DNA of 45,284 nt from Methanothermococcus sp. SCGC AD-155-E23. Lineage in GTDB: Archaea; AGJL01; Methanococci; Methanococcales; Methanococcaceae. A program made the translations under genes and the position numbers. The stretch's first letter is position 1. Each line of letters begins with the position of its first letter. Shown piece after piece: positions 638-14,734 of this stretch. The DNA lies in assembly GCA_019561615.1 (NCBI GenBank), contig JAHEQA010000006.1, positions 1-45,284 on the forward strand, written 5' to 3'. Under the pieces are notes generated by a model that was not told the origin of the DNA, made no database searches, and saw only the letters and a program-made list of their open reading frames with translations.

Positions 638-3193
638 ATGAAGGCATTCAATCAGATAGCCATACCTCATGAGGATATAAGGGAAGGAAGATTAACAATG
701 GACATCTTTGCCGCCGATCTCTGGCAGGTGGTAAAGGGTACAGCACCTAGAGACTACCAAGACCCAGATGTCTTCTTCAGAAAAACTCACATTACAAAGG
801 GCTTAAAAAATATCCTTCAGGTTGCAGAATCTAGACTTAAGGGAAGGGGAGGAGATGCCGTTATCCAGTTACAAACACCCTTTGGAGGTGGTAAGACCCA
901 CACCTTAATAGCCCTCTATCACAAGGCCAGGGAGTGGGGGGCCAACGTAGTGGTATTTGAAGGTACTAATTTCGATGCAAAGGAGACTAGAATATGGGAG
1001 GAGTTGGAGAGACAGTTGACAGGAAAGGTTGAACTAACAAAGGGGGACACAGCCCCTGGGAAGGAGAAAATTATCAAACTCCTCTCAGAAAATGCACCGG
1101 TACTGATACTCATAGATGAACTCCTGGAGTATATAACAAAGGCTGCTGGAGTAAAGGTTGGAGATTCCAATTTAGCCTCCCAGACATACGCCTTTATCCA
1201 GGAGTTAACTGAAGCAGTACGTGCCGTTGGAAATGCCATGCTAGTTATAACCCTTACCTCAAGTACCCTGGAACAGTACGATGAAAAGGCAGAGGAGGCA
1301 CTTAACAGACTTCAGAAAATCCTTGGAAGAACTGAGAAGATATATACACCTGTAAGTGACGAGGATATAGTCCCTGTAGTGATAAAGAGATTATTTAGCA
1401 GGATAGATAAGAAGGAGGCTAAAAAGATAGTAGATGAATTTGTAGATTACATAGAACAGGAGGGGGTCCTATCCAAGGAGGAGGCTGCCCGCTACAGGGA
1501 GAAATTCTTAGAGAGCTATCCCTTTAAACCTGAGGTAATAGAGATACTCTACAAGAGATGGGGATCCTTTCCAAGTTTTCAGAGGACAAGGGGGGTCCTG
1601 AGACTTCTATCCCTGGTGGTCTACCATATGCTAGACAGGGGGGTACCCTTTATAAGACTTGGAGACTTCGACCTAAGTAACGAGGAGATTAGGAGGGAGT
1701 TGATAAAGCACATCGGTAATGAGTGGGACAGTATAATATACAGTGATATCACCGCCGAGGATTCTGGAGCTAAAATAGTAGATAAGATGGTAGGAAGTAC
1801 CTATAGACCTTACAAACTTGGAACAGTGGTAGCTACCACCATATTTATGACCTCTTTCTCTGGCAGGGGGGAGAGAGGAGTAACCATGAAGGAGTTGAAG
1901 CTCTATACCCCCCTTCCAGTATTCCCGGCAAGTATAATAGACACAGTACTTGGCTACCTCAGGGAGAGACTGTTCTACCTCTCAGATGAGGGTCTCTACT
2001 TTGTAACACAGCCCAATCTAAATAGGATAATCCTAACCTATGAGGAGAACATATCACCTGAAGAGTTGTACGAGGAGGAGCGCAGCCTACTGGAAAAGAA
2101 CATCTCATACAAACCTAAGTTTAAGGTATACATCCATCCAAAGTTTCCAAGGGATATAGCAGATGATCCAGAATTAAAACTCCTTATAATGAAAAATGAT
2201 CAGGTAGATAGGGAGTTTGTAGAGAAGTACGGGGAGAGTCCAAGGATATACAGGAACACCCTCATATTCCTATGTCCTGACGAGAACTACAGAATGGACT
2301 TCCAGAAGGATCTAAGGAAATACCTGGCACTGAGGAGGATTAAGGAAGAAAAGCTAGATGAACTGACAAAATCCCAGCAAGAGGAGGTTAAGAGGAAGTT
2401 TGGAGATATTAAAAATAGACTTTATTCAAGTCTAAGGGAGTTCTACAGAAGGATATTCCTACCAGAGAGAGAGGGATTCGAGATAGTGGAAATGGAACGT
2501 CCCCATCCAGGGTCAGAGGATAAGTTGGACGAGGCTGTCTACGATAAGTTGAAATCTGAGGGCTATATAGTAGATGAGATAAGCCCTCGGATAATAAAGG
2601 ATAGATATCTAAGGGACAGAGACTACCTAGAAATCAAAAAGCTTTATGAGTCCCTTTTGAAGATCCCTGGAGAGCTAAGAATAGCATCCAAGGAAGGTTT
2701 CATAAGATCTATAAAGGAGGGGGTAAAAGAGGGATACTTTGGATATGGGAAATTAATAGATGGAAGGATAGAGGTTATCACAATTGGAGAGACTCCAGAT
2801 ATCCAACTATCTGAGGAAGAGGTAATAGTAAAACCTGAACTATGTGTCAGAGAGGAGAAGGAGGAGAAACCTGTAGAAACACCTCCAGTAGAAAGTAAGG
2901 AAGAGATCACTGAAGAGGTAAAACACCCGCCTAGATCAAAGGCGGTGGAAGAGGGTGTTTATAGGGATATAACATTGAGGCTTGAAATCCCCCTGGACTC
3001 CCCTTCAAATGTATACAAGGTATTTTCAACTATACTTAATATCCTTAAATGTCTAAAAAGTAAGTTCAAAAACTGTGAAATGGAGGTTACCATCAGGGCT
3101 AAAGATGGGGAGATAAGTAAATCCGATTATGAGAATGTTATTGTAGAGGCTCTTAGACAGTGTAACATCTCCTTTAAAGTGGATAAAAAATAA
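638..3193 (+). CDS. DUF499 family AAA+ ATPase (restriction-like defence component)
   Basis: N-terminal PHEDI..G....FAADL, Walker A QTPFGGGKTH, Walker B LILIDE, YPFKPE and FQRTRGVLRLL. ATG at 638 follows a GGTGA RBS. Confidence 0.88.
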   Translation: MKAFNQIAIPHEDIREGRLTMDIFAADLWQVVKGTAPRDYQDPDVFFRKTHITKGLKNILQVAESRLKGRGGDAVIQLQTPFGGGKTHTLIALYHKAREWGANVVVFEGTNFDAKETRIWEELERQLTGKVELTKGDTAPGKEKIIKLLSENAPVLILIDELLEYITKAAGVKVGDSNLASQTYAFIQELTEAVRAVGNAMLVITLTSSTLEQYDEKAEEALNRLQKILGRTEKIYTPVSDEDIVPVVIKRLFSRIDKKEAKKIVDEFVDYIEQEGVLSKEEAARYREKFLESYPFKPEVIEILYKRWGSFPSFQRTRGVLRLLSLVVYHMLDRGVPFIRLGDFDLSNEEIRRELIKHIGNEWDSIIYSDITAEDSGAKIVDKMVGSTYRPYKLGTVVATTIFMTSFSGRGERGVTMKELKLYTPLPVFPASIIDTVLGYLRERLFYLSDEGLYFVTQPNLNRIILTYEENISPEELYEEERSLLEKNISYKPKFKVYIHPKFPRDIADDPELKLLIMKNDQVDREFVEKYGESPRIYRNTLIFLCPDENYRMDFQKDLRKYLALRRIKEEKLDELTKSQQEEVKRKFGDIKNRLYSSLREFYRRIFLPEREGFEIVEMERPHPGSEDKLDEAVYDKLKSEGYIVDEISPRIIKDRYLRDRDYLEIKKLYESLLKIPGELRIASKEGFIRSIKEGVKEGYFGYGKLIDGRIEVITIGETPDIQLSEEEVIVKPELCVREEKEEKPVETPPVESKEEITEEVKHPPRSKAVEEGVYRDITLRLEIPLDSPSNVYKVFSTILNILKCLKSKFKNCEMEVTIRAKDGEISKSDYENVIVEALRQCNISFKVDKK

Positions 3194-8848: not shown

Positions 8849-10243
8849 TCAACCCTCCAATACAGAGTAGTCGTATCTGTAGATCCCCCTTACCTTTACA
8901 ACCTCCTCCCTTATTAAACCTGAGAATATTAACTTCTGAAGTTCATTTAAAAACTCTGATTCCGATAACCCCCTCTCCTTTACAATACTTAGTAGTCTTC
9001 TCCTCCCCCTTATCCTGTCCTCCCTTCTAAGGATATCCAGGATTGGACTTTCCCTACACCTATCCCTGAATTGAAGGAGTATCTCCCGTAGATGGTTGAT
9101 ATCTATCTTCTCCCTTAACTCCTTACACCTATCTGGAGGACTGTACAACCTTACATCCCAGGATCTCATATAGGCCCATTTTAGATTCCTTGCAAGAGGG
9201 GATATCTCATCTAACCTATACCTCCTCTCACCTGAAAGTACTGTAATCCGATGTTCACTTATCTTGGGGTAAGGGGGTATGTCCAGGAATAGAGTTGTGT
9301 TAAACCTTTCCGAGAGCTCCTCCTCTATCTTCCTTATCTCCTCCTCTCCCAGGTTTATCAGTATCCACTTCTCGTAGGGTGATAACTGGTTGTACTTAGC
9401 TACAAGTACATTCTTAAACAACTCCCTCCTGTCAAGCATCCTGATCAATTTATTGCCCTCTCCCTCAGATCTTCTCAGGATACTTATTAGATCTATGTCG
9501 TCCATCTTAGAGAGGTCCTTCACCTGGAAGAGTCCCTCCTCTATTCCATAGATAACGGCATTCTTCAACATGGTCTCAGAGATCCTTGAGGTGGGATGCA
9601 TATACACAGAGGTGTACATCTGATACCTGGCTATGAGGAGGGACTCTGCCGCAACTACCCCCTTCTCCAGTATACCTAACTTAGGTTTACCCTCCTCGAA
9701 GAGGACTATACACCTAATCAGCCTGTTGTAGTCTATAGATCCATATGCCACTCCAGTGTGATAACTGTCCCTTAGAAGGTAGTCTATCCTGTCTATGTCT
9801 ATGTCCCCACCTATCAAGGATCCCTCAGGCCCCTTACACTGTAGTACCTCTATAACCTCCCTTGGGGAGTAGTTCTCAATTTCCAGATTTTTTATTATCC
9901 TCCTGGTATAGTACTCGTGGTTGTAGCCTCTAATCTCTAGGGAGTGGGAGAAGGGTGGATGACCTATGTCGTGAAGTAGGGCCGATATCCTTATTAAGTT
10001 ACAGTCCACACCCTCTAAACCCTTGGATACCTCCCCTGCAATATGCATGGCACCTAGGGAGTGTTCAAAACGGGTATGGGTTGCACTGGGGTATACCATA
10101 TAGGTTAATCCAGTTTGCTTTATATTCCTCAGCCTCTGGAACTCTTGGGTGTCTATCAAGGATATCTCACTACTACTAACATGGATGTCGTAGTATATTG
10201 GATCCCGAATTATCTTATCCCCTGTCATATTAAATAGTCTCAT
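8849..10243 (-). CDS. HD-domain phosphohydrolase (SAMHD1/dNTP triphosphohydrolase-like) with a C-terminal extension
   Basis: RDPIY, FQRLRNIKQ.G, HTRFEHSLG, LLHDIGH.PFSH, DIDRIDYLLRD and RYQMY..VY.H. Confidence 0.88.
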   Translation of the reverse strand: MRLFNMTGDKIIRDPIYYDIHVSSSEISLIDTQEFQRLRNIKQTGLTYMVYPSATHTRFEHSLGAMHIAGEVSKGLEGVDCNLIRISALLHDIGHPPFSHSLEIRGYNHEYYTRRIIKNLEIENYSPREVIEVLQCKGPEGSLIGGDIDIDRIDYLLRDSYHTGVAYGSIDYNRLIRCIVLFEEGKPKLGILEKGVVAAESLLIARYQMYTSVYMHPTSRISETMLKNAVIYGIEEGLFQVKDLSKMDDIDLISILRRSEGEGNKLIRMLDRRELFKNVLVAKYNQLSPYEKWILINLGEEEIRKIEEELSERFNTTLFLDIPPYPKISEHRITVLSGERRYRLDEISPLARNLKWAYMRSWDVRLYSPPDRCKELREKIDINHLREILLQFRDRCRESPILDILRREDRIRGRRRLLSIVKERGLSESEFLNELQKLIFSGLIREEVVKVRGIYRYDYSVLEG

Positions 10244-10313: not shown

Positions 10314-10390
10314 GCCTTGGTGGCTCAGCCTGGTAGAGCGTCTGCTTGGTAAGCAGAAGGTCGCGGGTTCAAATCCCGCCCAAGGCTCCA
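10314..10390 (+). tRNA. tRNA-Thr (GGT), CCA encoded, no intron
   Basis: Acceptor GCCTTGG/CCAAGGC, D arm GCTC/GAGC, anticodon stem TCTGC/GCAGA with loop TT-GGT-AA, T arm GCGGG-TTCAAAT-CCCGC, discriminator T then CCA. Confidence 0.97.
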
Positions 10391-10466: not shown

Positions 10467-11232
10467 ATGCTTATACTTGCAGGTCTTGGACTCTACGACG
10501 AAAAGGATATGACGTTAAAAACCTTAGAACATGCCAAGAGGGCAGATAAGATATATGCAGAATTCTATACCTCCCTATTAACTGGTACAACTGTGGAGAG
10601 GATAGAGAAGGTTATTGGGAAGAAGATAACCCTCCTCACCAGGGAAGATCTAGAGTACAGGGGTTATAAGTTAATTGAGGAGGGTAGGGATAAGGTGGTA
10701 ATGCTCCTAACAGCAGGAGATCCCATGGTGGCAACAACCCATGTAGATCTGGCTATAGAGGCTAAAAAGAGAGGTGTGGATGTTAGAATTATTAACGCCC
10801 CCTCTATATACTCTGCAGTGGGGATCACTGGATTGCAGATATACAAGTTTGGAAGAACAACCTCAATTCCCTGAACCTAATTACTTCCCAGAGACACCTT
10901 ACAATGTTATAAGGGATAACCTGAGGATGGGACTTCATACCCTATGTCTCCTAGATATACAAAGTGATAAAAATAGATTTATGAGTGCTAACGAGGGTCT
11001 AAGAATCCTCCTTGAGATAGAGGAGAGAAGGAAGGAGAATGTTTTAAGTGAGGATACTAAAGTTGTTGTACTAGCTAGGGCAGGGAGTTTAAAACCAAAA
11101 ATAGTGTATGGCAGGATTGGAGATCTCCTTGATTACGACTTTGGACCTCCACTTCACTCTATCATTATCCCTGGAAAACTACACTTTATGGAGGAGGAGG
11201 CTCTAAAGTATCTATGTGAGAATGTACCCTAG
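10467..11232 (+). pseudogene. dph5: Diphthine synthase Dph5, split by a frameshift at about 10869-10874
   Basis: First frame: GLGLYDEKD, YAEFYTS, GDPMVATTH, GLQIYKFGRTTSI. The +1 frame continues FPEPNYFPETPY...HTLCLLDI...FGPPLH..IIPG.LHFMEEE. Confidence 0.9.
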
Positions 11233-11418
11233 TTAGGTAGAGGCCTTTATTCTTCTCAACCTCTCGTTTATCCTCTCCAACTCCTCCCTGGTTAACCTGG
11301 TGGACTGTTTAAGGTATTCCAACTCCTTCTTTAACTGGACTATTTTTATAAATAGTACAACGTTCAGTATAAGGCTGATAATCGCTACTATCATGGCTAC
11401 TGTGCCATAAAACGGCAT
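11233..11418 (-). CDS. Small single-TM + coiled-coil protein, third copy in the direction of transcription (minD-associated)
   Basis: 61 aa with hydrophobic N-terminus then LKKELEYLKQSTRLTREELERINERL. GAGGGGAG RBS. Paralogue of 11586-11768. Confidence 0.8.
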   Translation of the reverse strand: MPFYGTVAMIVAIISLILNVVLFIKIVQLKKELEYLKQSTRLTREELERINERLRRIKAST

Positions 11419-11657
11419 TTTCTCCCCTCATTTTTAAATTTTAAGGTTTTCCAGTCTCTCGTTTATCCTCGTAGACTGCTTCAACTGGTCCAACTCCCTT
11501 CTCAGTTGAAGTGCAGTTGTAAGTAGTAAAAGACATAGGGAGAGGCTAGAGAGGGAGAGTATAGATATTAAATTTTTTCCCTTTACTATGTTATCTTTAA
11601 TCTTCTCAGTCTCTCGTTTATCCTCTCCAACTCCTCCCTGGTTAACCTGGTGGACTG
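11261..11657. repeat. Perfect 47-bp direct repeat (11261-11307 and 11611-11657) within the paralogous small genes
   Basis: CTCTCGTTTATCCTCTCCAACTCCTCCCTGGTTAACCTGGTGGACTG occurs twice, 350 bp apart. Confidence 0.93.
11434..11571 (-). pseudogene. Middle (uncalled) copy of the small TM + coiled-coil gene, lacking a canonical start and 8 internal codons
   Basis: Minus strand reads LISILSLSSLSLCLLLLTTALQLRRELDQLKQSTRINERLENLKI*. Confidence 0.8.
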
Positions 11658-11768
11658 CTTCAACTGATCCAACTCTCTCTTCAACTGGATCAACTTTATG
11701 GAGAGTATAATATTCAGGGTAATGCTCAAGGTGGCTATAATTATAGCTATTGTGTCGTAGGATATCAT
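11586..11768 (-). CDS. Small single-TM + coiled-coil protein, first copy (coupled to minD)
   Basis: 60 aa. Its ATG overlaps the minD stop (ATGA). TM segment followed by LKRELDQLKQSTRLTREELERINERL. Confidence 0.82.
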   Translation of the reverse strand: MISYDTIAIIIATLSITLNIILSIKLIQLKRELDQLKQSTRLTREELERINERLRRLKIT

Positions 11769-12553
11769 TTTCTACCCCCGAATATCCCTCTAAGGAATTT
11801 TTTAATGAAGGACTCTTTCTCCTTCTTCTTCTCAGGTATGTACTTCTTACCTATCAACTTGGCAGCTATCTCCATGATAGCCTGAGCTGCTGGTGAGTCT
11901 GGATACTTTAGTACAATAGGTTCTCCAAATGCGGCACACTTTCTTACATTTGGATCCTCTGGAACTACCCCTAGTATTGGAACCTCTAAGATAGTTGCAA
12001 TGGCCTTTGAACTTAATTCTGAATCCTCCTTCATCGTTCTGTTTATTATGGCACCTAGTACATTTGTACCTAATTTTTTTGCAATGGCTATAACCTTCAG
12101 GGCATCGGCTATGGAGGATATCTCTGGGTTAACTACCAGTATTAGATGTTCCGAAGCTGAGATTGCTGTCAAGGCCTCCTTTCCAATACCTGCTGGACAG
12201 TCTATGATGATAATCTCTGCCATGTCATGTAACTTCTTTAACACCTCCTCCAATTTTTCCGGTCTTGCCTTCCTAAAGGCGTCTAGGGAGATACCTGCAG
12301 GTATTACCTTTACCCCTGCAGGTCCCTCGTATATAGCCTCCTCTATACTTGCATTGCCGGCAAGAACGTCGTTTAAAGTTTTACCCTTCTTCCCCTCAAT
12401 CCCCAGTACCAACTCCAAATTAGCCATTGCTATATCTGCATCTAACACTATTACATCCTTCCCAAATTTTGCCAGGGCTACTGCCAGGTTTGCCGCGATG
12501 GTGGTCTTACCTGTACCCCCTTTACCTGATGCTATTGCAATGGATGTAGCCAT
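11765..12553 (-). CDS. minD: Archaeal MinD/ParA-family ATPase
   Basis: Deviant Walker A SGKGGTGKTT, DADIAMANL, IIDCPAG and C-terminal amphipathic helix SFIKKFLRGIFG. ATG 12553 follows GGTGA. Confidence 0.92.
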   Translation of the reverse strand: MATSIAIASGKGGTGKTTIAANLAVALAKFGKDVIVLDADIAMANLELVLGIEGKKGKTLNDVLAGNASIEEAIYEGPAGVKVIPAGISLDAFRKARPEKLEEVLKKLHDMAEIIIIDCPAGIGKEALTAISASEHLILVVNPEISSIADALKVIAIAKKLGTNVLGAIINRTMKEDSELSSKAIATILEVPILGVVPEDPNVRKCAAFGEPIVLKYPDSPAAQAIMEIAAKLIGKKYIPEKKKEKESFIKKFLRGIFGGRK

Positions 12554-12558
12554 CTTTT

Positions 12559-13875
12559 TCACCTACTTAGAAGAATATTTTCCAATTTTTCAACTACAGT
12601 AACTATATCTTCCTCTTTTACCCCTAGGGGTGCACTTATAACAAGGTAATCGTAGGGATACCTCTTGAGATAGCAGGTGCCAAATTTATCAGTGGATCTT
12701 ACCCCTCTTGGACCTGTGACCCTTAAATTGTAAAGCTTCCCTGCTATCTCAACAGGGTCTGAATGGACGGTGACAGATAGGGATATTGGATTATCTATAT
12801 TTAAAACTTTACCTCCTGTCTTTTCAGCTAGGTTATTCAAAAGTTCTTCCAGTAGATCTCTACATCTCCTCTGCTCCTCCATCAACTCCAGGTATCCCCT
12901 CATACCCAGGGATAGTAGGGAGACAAGTATATTTACAACAGGGGTTGCACAGGCCCTACCTGGATAACTTAGTGACACCTCCCTTAAGAAATCCCTATCC
13001 TTGGAGTATACAATGCCCCCTCCTATAGGTGTAAGTAGGTTCTTATCTGAGGAGCTTACTACAGCATCTAGACGGTACTTAAGAGCCCTCCTAATTCTCT
13101 CTATGTAGTATCTACTTTGAAGTGCATAGGCGCCATTTACAATATGAGGTATGTTGTACTCCTCGCATATCCTGGCGATCTCCTCTATATTATCACTCTC
13201 CCTAGGTGGAAAGAAGGTTAAGGTACTTAATACACAGGGGTTGTTACCCTCCCTTATCTCCTGGACTATGGCATCCTCTATATCCTCCACATCCACCTTC
13301 ACCTTATCCCCGTAAAGTTTAGTCTCCACCAACCTCATCCTAAACCCAGCTAGATAGACCCCTTTTATTGGGCTCTTATGGGCTGCATAGGGGTATATTA
13401 CCACGTTGGAGTTGTACATCCTCCTGGCGGCGTTGAGGCAGAGAGAGAGGGAGAGTCCAGTTGCCACAGGTAGTCCTATCCCATAAACCTTTAAGCCAAG
13501 ATTTCTCAGGAAACTTGTTAGTATATCGTTGGTTAACCTGTACATTGCACTTGCACCTGGGGCCTTAGGTTGGGGATCTACAAGGTTACCACTTCTACCT
13601 ATTCCATGACAGAATCCAGAGACTAGCTCCTCCTGGATCCTGGAGACACATCTACCCTCCCTCTCCCCTACCCTTACAACCTTGGGATCCTTGTCAGTAT
13701 CCATAAGTGAGAGGAACTTTAAAAGTAATCTTATCTTGTCCTCAGGTATCCCCTCCCTTGGAATCCTTCGATGATCCAGGATGTCCTCGATATACCTTAG
13801 GTTGTCCTTCAACACCAGGAGCCCTCTATCTTCCAGGTTTTTAGGGATCAATCCACTTATATTCATTCTTAACAT
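12559..13875 (-). CDS. spcS: O-phosphoseryl-tRNA(Sec) selenium transferase (SepSecS)
   Basis: MDTDKDP...VGEREGR, HGIGRSGNL.DPQPKAPG, PLP lysine in SSSDKN, and YPGRA. Confidence 0.93.
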   Translation of the reverse strand: MLRMNISGLIPKNLEDRGLLVLKDNLRYIEDILDHRRIPREGIPEDKIRLLLKFLSLMDTDKDPKVVRVGEREGRCVSRIQEELVSGFCHGIGRSGNLVDPQPKAPGASAMYRLTNDILTSFLRNLGLKVYGIGLPVATGLSLSLCLNAARRMYNSNVVIYPYAAHKSPIKGVYLAGFRMRLVETKLYGDKVKVDVEDIEDAIVQEIREGNNPCVLSTLTFFPPRESDNIEEIARICEEYNIPHIVNGAYALQSRYYIERIRRALKYRLDAVVSSSDKNLLTPIGGGIVYSKDRDFLREVSLSYPGRACATPVVNILVSLLSLGMRGYLELMEEQRRCRDLLEELLNNLAEKTGGKVLNIDNPISLSVTVHSDPVEIAGKLYNLRVTGPRGVRSTDKFGTCYLKRYPYDYLVISAPLGVKEEDIVTVVEKLENILLSR

Positions 13876-13897
13876 ACTTCCACCTAATAGGGATACT

Positions 13898-14734
13898 ATG
13901 GGCATAAGGGATTACATGGACCTTATAAGGGTGAAGAACTGTTTAATCGCATCCCTTGGGGCCGCTATAGCTGGACTAATCGCCTCTAACTTTAACATCC
14001 ATATGCTAGATAGGATACTCCTCGCCTCCCTTGTAGTCTTCCTTATCTGTGGTTTTGGTAACGTTATAAACGACATCTACGATGTAGATATTGACAGGAT
14101 AAACAAACCTCACCGCCCCCTACCCTCTGGTAGGGTATCTCTAAAAGGTGCCAAAGTACTGGCCTGGATACTGGCTATATCTGGACTACTCCTTTCCCTT
14201 TTCAACTGGATATGTTTTGTTATAGCCCTACTTAACACCTTTATCCTCTACCTCTACGCCAGATTATTTAAAAGGGATAAGAGGATAGGTAACCTTCTAG
14301 TGGCATACCTTACAGGTTCTGTCTTTCTCTTCGGTGGTGCATCAGTGGGTAATATCCTTATTACATTTATACTCTTCCTCTGTGCCCTGTTAACTACCTG
14401 GGCCAGGGAGGTAGTTAAGGACTTTGAGGATATGGAGGGGGATAGGGAGAGGGGGGTAATCTCACTTCCAATAAAGTACGGTAAGAGGGCACTCTACCTT
14501 GCACTGGGACTACTGATTCTGGCAGTGATTCTAAGTCCATTGCCTTACCTCATGGGAATATTCAGCTATCTCTACCTTCTAGGTATAGCACTCTGTGATG
14601 TACTACTTCTCCACTCTATAGTAAAACTACTGAGGAACCCTACAAGGGAGGAGGCAGAGAGATGTGCCAGAGAGATAAAGATGATTATAAGTTTTATACT
14701 GATAGCCTTTATACTAGGGACAATCTCTGGATAA
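13898..14734 (+). CDS. UbiA family prenyltransferase, digeranylgeranylglyceryl-phosphate synthase
   Basis: INDIYDVDIDRINKPHRPLPSG and REVVKDFEDMEGD motifs, multiple TM helices. Start placed at ATG 13898. Confidence 0.88.
   Translation: MGIRDYMDLIRVKNCLIASLGAAIAGLIASNFNIHMLDRILLASLVVFLICGFGNVINDIYDVDIDRINKPHRPLPSGRVSLKGAKVLAWILAISGLLLSLFNWICFVIALLNTFILYLYARLFKRDKRIGNLLVAYLTGSVFLFGGASVGNILITFILFLCALLTTWAREVVKDFEDMEGDRERGVISLPIKYGKRALYLALGLLILAVILSPLPYLMGIFSYLYLLGIALCDVLLLHSIVKLLRNPTREEAERCAREIKMIISFILIAFILGTISG

Follow-up and report, generated by a model that had tools for sequence, protein, structure and literature searches.

A transmembrane microprotein encoded directly after minD in distant archaea as a candidate MinD partner

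The stretch of DNA analysed here, called the window throughout, comprises 45,284 nucleotides of Methanothermococcus sp. SCGC AD-155-E23 (contig JAHEQA010000006.1, assembly GCA_019561615.1) and carries a minD gene followed by small genes for proteins of about 60 amino acids with one transmembrane (TM) helix. A previous reading of the window, made from its letters alone (the sequence-only reading), had proposed that these microproteins act as anchors or ATPase stimulators of MinD. Comparison with other archaeal genomes showed that the value of the locus lies in the conserved pair formed by MinD and the microprotein, and that the tandem triplet seen in the window is a minor, lineage-specific amplification. 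We propose that the microprotein may be a dedicated partner of MinD in a conserved two-gene module, a reading that draws on comparative sequence evidence and to which we assign a probability of about 0.5. A protein of some 60 residues is easily overlooked in annotation, and it is the linkage of its gene to minD across deep archaeal lineages that makes it a candidate partner.

Linkage of minD and the microprotein gene across archaea

All genes of the minD/microprotein locus are encoded on the minus strand. The minD gene occupies positions 11765..12553 (stop codon at 11765-11767); its open reading frame (ORF) reaches back to a GTG at 12562, giving 265 amino acids, and the ATG at 12553, preceded by AGGTGA, appears the likelier start. 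The encoded protein scored 370.4 bits against the archaeal MinD model TIGR01969 (minD_arch, cut-off 201.75), the same locus being recovered in a search of the whole genome, and 166.8 bits against the bacterial model TIGR01968, below its cut-off of 212.9. Its Pfam matches belong to the ParA/CbiA/AAA_31 set, and the best solved chain was 1hyq_A ('cell division inhibitor MinD-1') with 277 bits, 4v03_A reaching 143 bits. The deviant Walker A motif (xKGGxGK[ST]) is present as SGKGGTGKTT at residues 12-21 of the 265-residue ORF, and its residues G13, K14, G15, G16, G18, K19 and T20 are invariant across 31 orthologues. The protein ends in an amphipathic segment (...KESFIKKFLRGIFGGRK) that is kept in the aligned orthologues (alignment A4); this tail, SFIKKFLRGIFGGRK, encoded by 11768..11812 (minus), is a putative membrane-targeting sequence (MTS) by analogy with bacterial MinD and with MinD4 of Haloferax volcanii. 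The sequence-only reading had named both the MinD and its amphipathic tail, and had described translational coupling through ATGA; this is what we found, since the minD stop overlaps the start codon of the first microprotein gene (copy 1, 60 aa, 11586..11768, minus; AAAATGATA).

In what follows, genomes, loci and families carry G, L and f labels; G000 is the window genome (1.04 Mb in 51 contigs, 86% complete), and the relatives of its order form families f1 and f2. With a single microprotein as query, matches at E <=1 were obtained in 35 of 41 genomes, among them G000 and, by a weak match, G040, and the profile A1 matched 34 of 40 genomes at E <=0.01. In every one of the 29 loci fetched from order relatives the microprotein gene shares its strand with a minD orthologue of 70-99% identity and lies immediately 3' of it. 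The linkage extends to another phylum, that of G040, in which the profile A3 matched 25 of 38 genomes; of the 30 loci fetched there, 19 have the microprotein directly behind a MinD with 52-58% identity to that of the window. The gap between the genes was scored in 18 of these 19, the last one (L087) being cut by a contig end with both genes present; among the remaining 11 loci, 10 have no minD nearby and one (L089) is too short for a decision. Families f20 and f24 showed the pair in 5/5 loci, and the genome G047 contains a second linked pair. Overall, the microprotein start lies between -4 and +10 nt from the minD stop in 49 of 51 scored pairs. The sequence-only reading would have lost its ground with homologues unlinked to minD elsewhere; instead linkage is general in the order and is found at phylum distance. 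Its mention of a single similar small ORF beside minD in other methanococci was also verified by the order-wide linkage, one copy being usual.

MinD is the only constant neighbour of the microprotein, and the other neighbours vary. The SepSecS gene lies upstream of minD only in genus g1 (loci of 9 relatives), and the pair is followed by a convergent dph5 in the window, by a membrane protein gene in G002 and by genes for a secreted protein and a GT2 protein in most of the order, the latter two being absent at the window locus. In most Methanococcales (L014-L041) this third gene codes for 116-255 amino acids with a signal peptide, an Asn-rich sequence with numerous N-x-S/T sites and a TM anchor at the C-terminus, and GT2 comes next. 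In the other phylum, at 10 of the 15 loci L072-L086, a further MinD paralogue, with 41-45% identity to the window MinD, stands right after the microprotein gene and convergent to the pair.

We also compared the presence of the two genes. Within the order, every MinD orthologue of at least 70% identity has a microprotein, and G015 (99% complete) has neither protein. Three genomes of genus g3, G018, G021 and G022 (L193, L191 and L192), have lost the microprotein together with the secreted-protein gene and keep the syntenic MinD directly upstream of GT2; the identity of this MinD to the window's is 49-50%, where sister genomes reach about 71%, and no microprotein relic is recognisable in the AT-rich spacer. 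The branch of the G022 MinD measures 1.33, against <=0.2 in the rest of the order. The incomplete genomes G007 (54%) and G039 (81%) show only the other MinD paralogue. In a quick MinD tree, a group of 25 rows (SH-aLRT 89) consists of microprotein-linked MinDs except for the divergent one of G022, unlinked MinDs fall elsewhere, and f19 and the linked f24 lie outside this group. The window genome itself encodes a second TIGR01969 MinD on another contig, which groups with a Methanothermococcus record in this tree and has no microprotein-like ORF downstream. A locus search with the MinD alignment A4, which returned mostly bacterial MinD/ParA, gave no microprotein profile match in 80 loci among the matches listed, and the 8 archaeal loci inspected from it, again among the matches listed, had no microprotein downstream.

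Several findings weigh against a dedicated partnership. MinD is much more widespread than the microprotein: of 401 archaeal genomes sampled, 227 had a TIGR01969 score above the cut-off and 56 a match to the A3 profile. No such gene lies downstream of the high-scoring MinDs of families f15, f27, f57, f65, f133 and f136, and in five of these six a PfkB-like ORF is found there instead. Ten loci of the other phylum hold microprotein paralogues away from any MinD. In the complete one-contig genome G005 (L015, G005:C1:142368-145541) MinD is cut at about residue 211 and the microprotein is intact: a deletion that starts at about codon 211 of MinD ends, out of frame, within the first of the microprotein copies, and one intact 61-residue copy remains downstream, so that either the pair is dispensable there or the microprotein has another role. 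Finally, a permanently TM-anchored activator would, to our knowledge, be unlike every known activator of MinD/ParA proteins. The joined frames of G005 had also been considered as a Rosetta-stone fusion of MinD and microprotein, which we rejected because the MinD frame enters the first copy out of frame, as expected from a deletion.

The unlinked paralogues, one of which stands beside an HtpX-like protease gene, and the intact microprotein next to a broken MinD in G005 would be accommodated if the microprotein were an independent small membrane protein, engaged in membrane stress or in some other complex, that shares the minD transcript through operon inertia. Microproteins composed of a TM segment plus a helix are common, and those of this family give weak chance matches to DUF948, Vpu and FtsL, which also agrees with such a protein. 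Operon inertia fits poorly with the overlapping or near-abutting arrangement of stop and start that persists at phylum distance while the other neighbours change, and with the loss of the microprotein accompanying the loss or strong divergence of MinD; we hold an independent function to be rather unlikely. The paralogue near the protease gene (L187, G047:C15:149500-154700, ORF 2505-2690 (-), MIEGGA...YGTKLSREELEAIRRRLSKFK) lies just downstream of this HtpX-like M48 gene with no adjacent MinD, and similar copies occur in L099-L101.

An unannotated family of one-helix membrane proteins

The alignment A1, with 33 proteins of the order, has no internal gaps; S15, L22, L29, E32, K37, T40, L42, T43, E46 and R53 are invariant and N19 is nearly so. 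Among 36 MinD-linked members from two phyla, S15, L22, L42, E46 and R53 remain invariant and N19, L29, L54 and K58 are at least 90% conserved. The pattern in these alignments is that of a real protein under purifying selection. When 1.84 billion representatives were searched with a profile, 49 clusters were obtained at E <=1e-3, all of 44-104 residues, and the 48 cluster sequences inspected share the same plan without exception: an N-terminal hydrophobic helix with S...N, followed by L..EL...(G)v.L[ST].EEL..l..RL..lK. A search for homologous proteins returned 17 close relatives, and the nearest ESM Atlas clusters, with a score of 0.90, are archaeal hypothetical proteins.

No model of Pfam or NCBIfam covers the family, since only 0 to 2 of 43 members gave sub-threshold chance matches to any of them. 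The MinE family model matched neither of the two intact window copies nor any of the 43 members. We found no description of a MinD-linked archaeal microprotein in the literature searched, and no paper in a search for the locus tags MJ0544-MJ0547. By these comparisons the microprotein represents an unannotated protein family and is not a member of MinE.

In copy 1 the best 19-residue Kyte-Doolittle window starts at residue 6 (2.3). The N-terminus has a net charge of -1, the TM helix that follows carries S15 and N19, and the tail contains 11 K+R versus 6 D+E; this charge distribution and the positive-inside rule place the tail in the cytoplasm, in a topology that is predicted. AlphaFold2 (AF2), run with the alignment, modelled one helix over residues 4-59 with a mean pLDDT of 83.5 and values of 70-78 over residues 31-60. 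The coiled coil that the sequence-only reading had described corresponds here to a predicted single long helix. A helix-turn-helix hairpin, suspected for the tail from a GG in distant members, was rejected for the window protein, given this single predicted helix.

The small size, one TM helix and one further helix also recall FtsL/DivIC-type proteins. One of the 43 microproteins matched TIGR02209 at E 2.6e-4 (reporting threshold E 0.001), a single weak match. FtsL/DivIC-type proteins have their coiled coil outside the cell, whereas the charge distribution puts the microprotein tail in the cytoplasm.

Possible roles beside MinD

In the module that we propose, a MinD with an amphipathic membrane-targeting tail would be produced together with a translationally coupled microprotein of about 60 residues. 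The microprotein would be bitopic, with a short N-terminus outside, a TM helix presenting the invariant Ser and the near-invariant Asn on one face, and a basic helix of about 35 residues facing the cytoplasm. MinD would dock on the membrane via its tail, and the cytoplasmic helix could then meet the ATP-bound MinD dimer. Most likely the microprotein would regulate the ATPase activity and membrane residence of MinD, which would be a MinE-like function exerted by an unrelated protein; alternatively, it may fix MinD at particular membrane sites by a MinJ-like bridging. Within the dedicated-partner reading, we consider regulation somewhat more probable than tethering. The evidence pointing to the anchor or MinE-like stimulator role suggested by the sequence-only reading is gene linkage and architecture. 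One complex prediction, made with a MinD dimer, ATP, Mg and residues 24-60 of the microprotein and a separate alignment per chain, gave ipSAE values of 0.08 and 0.05 and a mark of 0.32.

The arrangement resembles MinCDE of Escherichia coli in that a MinD with a C-terminal amphipathic tail is encoded beside a small, helical protein that associates with the membrane, and the small partner, like MinE, would be expected to act on membrane-bound MinD. MinE consists of an amphipathic N-terminal helix and a dimeric alpha/beta domain. The window microprotein differs from it in having a true N-terminal TM helix and no sequence relation, and no minC is present. In the portions of the literature consulted, archaea are credited with MinD homologues but with neither MinC nor MinE (PMC13228585), the MinDs of Haloferax are described as not positioning the divisome, and no partner of archaeal MinD is named. 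For ParA/MinD ATPases more generally, the consulted part of one source describes a small partner that stimulates the ATPase and frees it from its matrix (PMC11407121).

Among archaeal homologues, MinD4 and MinD2 of Haloferax are the nearest to consider, and MinD4 likewise carries a C-terminal MTS, which in H. volcanii is reported, in the portions consulted, to be essential for a protein that positions cellular machinery (10.1101/2020.04.03.021790; PMC11588486). MinD4 differs in that its role lies in archaella and chemotaxis arrays and in that the consulted part of its description names no partner (10.1101/2020.04.03.021790). Another parallel in logic is the Haloferax Dip system (DipA GTPase, DipB and DipC; He et al. 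2026, preprint), in which, according to the portion consulted, a membrane-binding NTPase is detached by a small partner and the system places the divisome (PMC13228585). Dip has in common with the pair described here the combination of a membrane-binding NTPase and a small (here candidate) partner, but its proteins are unrelated, DipA being a GTPase and not a MinD.

A similar gene arrangement occurs in Thermococcales. In G104, G125 and G240 (L205, L198 and L208) the start of a gene for a TM microprotein of 80-81 residues overlaps the stop of MinD by 4 nt, and this MinD has an MTS-like tail. The Thermococcales protein (MN..LLVVLLISVLLNII...EETK.QLKRRV.HLKEDLESELEEF...) carries the same S..LN motif in an N-terminal TM helix, followed by a charged helix. 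It differs in its tail, which is acidic and not alignable, and hhalign gave a probability of 86% over 25 TM columns only. From its position it is an analogue of the window microprotein, and from its sequence possibly a distant homologue. A second MinD of G240 is about 92% identical to PDB 1g3q_A, which we take to be a Pyrococcus entry, and we call f19, the family of these genomes, Pyrococcus-like for this reason.

The envelope genes that follow the pair in most of the order raise a different role, in which the microprotein would be an adaptor or tether linking membrane-bound MinD to envelope cargo, namely the secreted protein and GT2, so that MinD would position a surface structure or a glycosylation site. 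MinJ bridges MinD in Bacillus in a comparable way. The gene order minD, microprotein, signal-peptide protein with C-terminal TM segment and GT2 in most relatives' loci agrees with such a role, and the invariant Ser and Asn of the TM helix would suit helix-helix docking to another membrane protein. The window locus, other g1 genomes and the loci of the other phylum lack the secreted-protein and GT2 genes, though, and the pair has different neighbours there; G018, G021 and G022 retain GT2 beside MinD despite having lost the microprotein. Archaeal MinD-like ATPases have been tied, in the portions of the sources consulted, to pili, archaella and chemotaxis and not to division (PMC4858521; 10.1101/2020.04.03.021790), which is in line with envelope cargo; on balance we judge a cargo adaptor of this kind unlikely.

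Returning to the dedicated partner, its most far-reaching form is that the microprotein is a TM-anchored, MinE-like activator and, with the MTS-bearing MinD, the second component of an archaeal Min-type patterning system. Such a system, a reaction-diffusion or positioning device at the membrane, would act in Methanococci and, through the divergent analogue, in Thermococci, lineages reported to be Dip-less; it would determine where the cell divides or where envelope machinery is placed, and the amplified copy number of this vent lineage would tune the dose of activator. We regard this extension as doubtful. Should the microprotein prove to regulate MinD, archaea would have in it their first activator or adaptor of a MinD-type ATPase that is anchored by a TM helix, and Min-like logic assembled from unrelated proteins would be known in two cases, this one and Dip. 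A microprotein that does not bind MinD would still constitute a widespread unannotated archaeal family. Genetics are available in Methanococcus maripaludis, which, provided that it is one of the relatives searched, has a single copy of the pair.

Tandem copies and flanking genes in the window

Besides copy 1, the window contains a second intact gene of the family (copy 3, 61 aa, 11233..11418, minus), which lies 350 nt downstream of the first and has its own Shine-Dalgarno-like motif, GAGGGGA, upstream. In the whole-genome search with copy 1 it was recovered at E 1.4e-21, and its profile score was 105.5 bits. Between both genes, at about 11434..11577 (minus), a homologous open frame (...KNLISILSLSSLSLCLLLLTTALQLRRELDQLKQSTRINERLENLKI, followed by a stop) represents copy 2. 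This middle copy has no ATG, GTG or TTG ahead of its last 19 codons and lacks 8 codons in the TRLTREEL region, and it scored 37.9 bits with the profile versus about 100 for intact copies. Its equivalent in G011, the closest relative, with a MinD 99% identical to the window's, is an intact gene of 59 residues; compared with it, the window has lost the ATG together with 4 codons through a 15-bp deletion, and TRLTREEL through an in-frame deletion of 24 bp. Without a start codon and with 8 codons lost, the middle copy is a decaying relic, and the window holds two intact genes and this relic instead of three genes. The three paralogous genes of about 60 residues in the sequence-only reading are therefore reduced to two, the middle one having been counted as a gene. 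The whole-genome search recovered both intact copies and, lying between them, the weak third match; no other match was convincing.

Copies 1 and 3 agree at 133 of 180 nt, with a tract of 47 identical nucleotides at 11611..11657 (minus) in copy 1, covering codons 38-53 (QSTRLTREELERINER), and at 11261..11307 (minus) in copy 3. The sequence-only reading had noticed this tract, which is exact, as well as the divergence of the TM parts, which are 65% identical upstream versus 93% in a 54-nt core. When the mismatch positions were permuted, 0 of 100000 permutations gave a run as long as 47 nt, a signal that is partly protein constraint; in addition, 12 codons with synonymous differences lie outside the run and none inside. 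For the same two copies in G011, identity over the 54-nt core is 81% and the longest run is 26 nt. In G004 they are 96% identical to each other, with a run of 128 nt, and only 68-73% identical to the copies of G000. Paralogues within a genome that are closer than orthologues between genomes indicate gene conversion or repeated re-duplication. From these sequence comparisons, it is supported that gene conversion has kept copies 1 and 3 alike in the core that codes for the helix, as had been suggested.

Arrays of three copies are limited to a small subclade formed by G000, G011 and G004, with fragments in G001, G005 and G009; one copy elsewhere is the rule. The expansion of copy number claimed for this lineage is therefore real and confined to one subclade, and in the window array the microprotein gene has been amplified in tandem in a lineage-specific manner, with decay of the middle copy.

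Because the window genome is incomplete and fragmented, with a defective middle copy and a frameshifted dph5 next to the array, we considered whether the small ORFs arose by chance or the array from misassembly of repeats. The small proteins are conserved at the protein level over 36-43 sequences, and arrays of three copies are present in the independent assemblies G011 and G004, the latter with 5 contigs and 99% complete. The copies of G001 and G009 stand at contig ends, as expected where repeats break assembly. The stretch was also found in hydrothermal-vent metagenomes: all 30 bins of 11000-12700 are covered, with no differences or indels, by contigs of X1 and X2, two runs from different studies, and a contig of X5 matches 11387-11549 exactly, spanning the site of the 24-bp deletion; one of these runs may be the source of the window itself. 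Among the public runs listed for the stretch there was no RNA data set. The artefact that the sequence-only reading had allowed for is thus contradicted by independent arrays and by contigs from different studies, and we consider it very improbable. As a separate observation, a contig of X3 joins 11442 to 11587, skipping 144 nt that correspond to the relic, with a side of 30 nt and the likeness set at 90; it may hint at a variant with two copies in a vent population but is too weak to claim such a strain.

Upstream of minD, the SepSecS gene (12559..13905, minus; TIGR03531, 548.6 bits) ends 5 nt before the minD ATG. This archaeal SepSecS, the vent metagenomes that contain the stretch and the grouping of the second MinD paralogue with a Methanothermococcus record point to a Methanococcales archaeon living in hydrothermal-vent material. 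On the other side of the array, dph5, encoding diphthine synthase, lies on the plus strand (10467-11232) and is split into 135 residues and a 152-residue ORF in another frame. Near the break, at 10868-10875, the window reads ...GRTTSIP and then a stop, and it seems short of a few bases; the orthologue of G011 is intact with 256 residues (...GRTASIVFPEPNYF...). The split reflects either a true frameshift or a mistake in the assembly. Beyond it, a tRNA-Thr (GGT) gene (10314-10390, plus) lies between dph5 and an HD-domain gene (8849..10243, minus).

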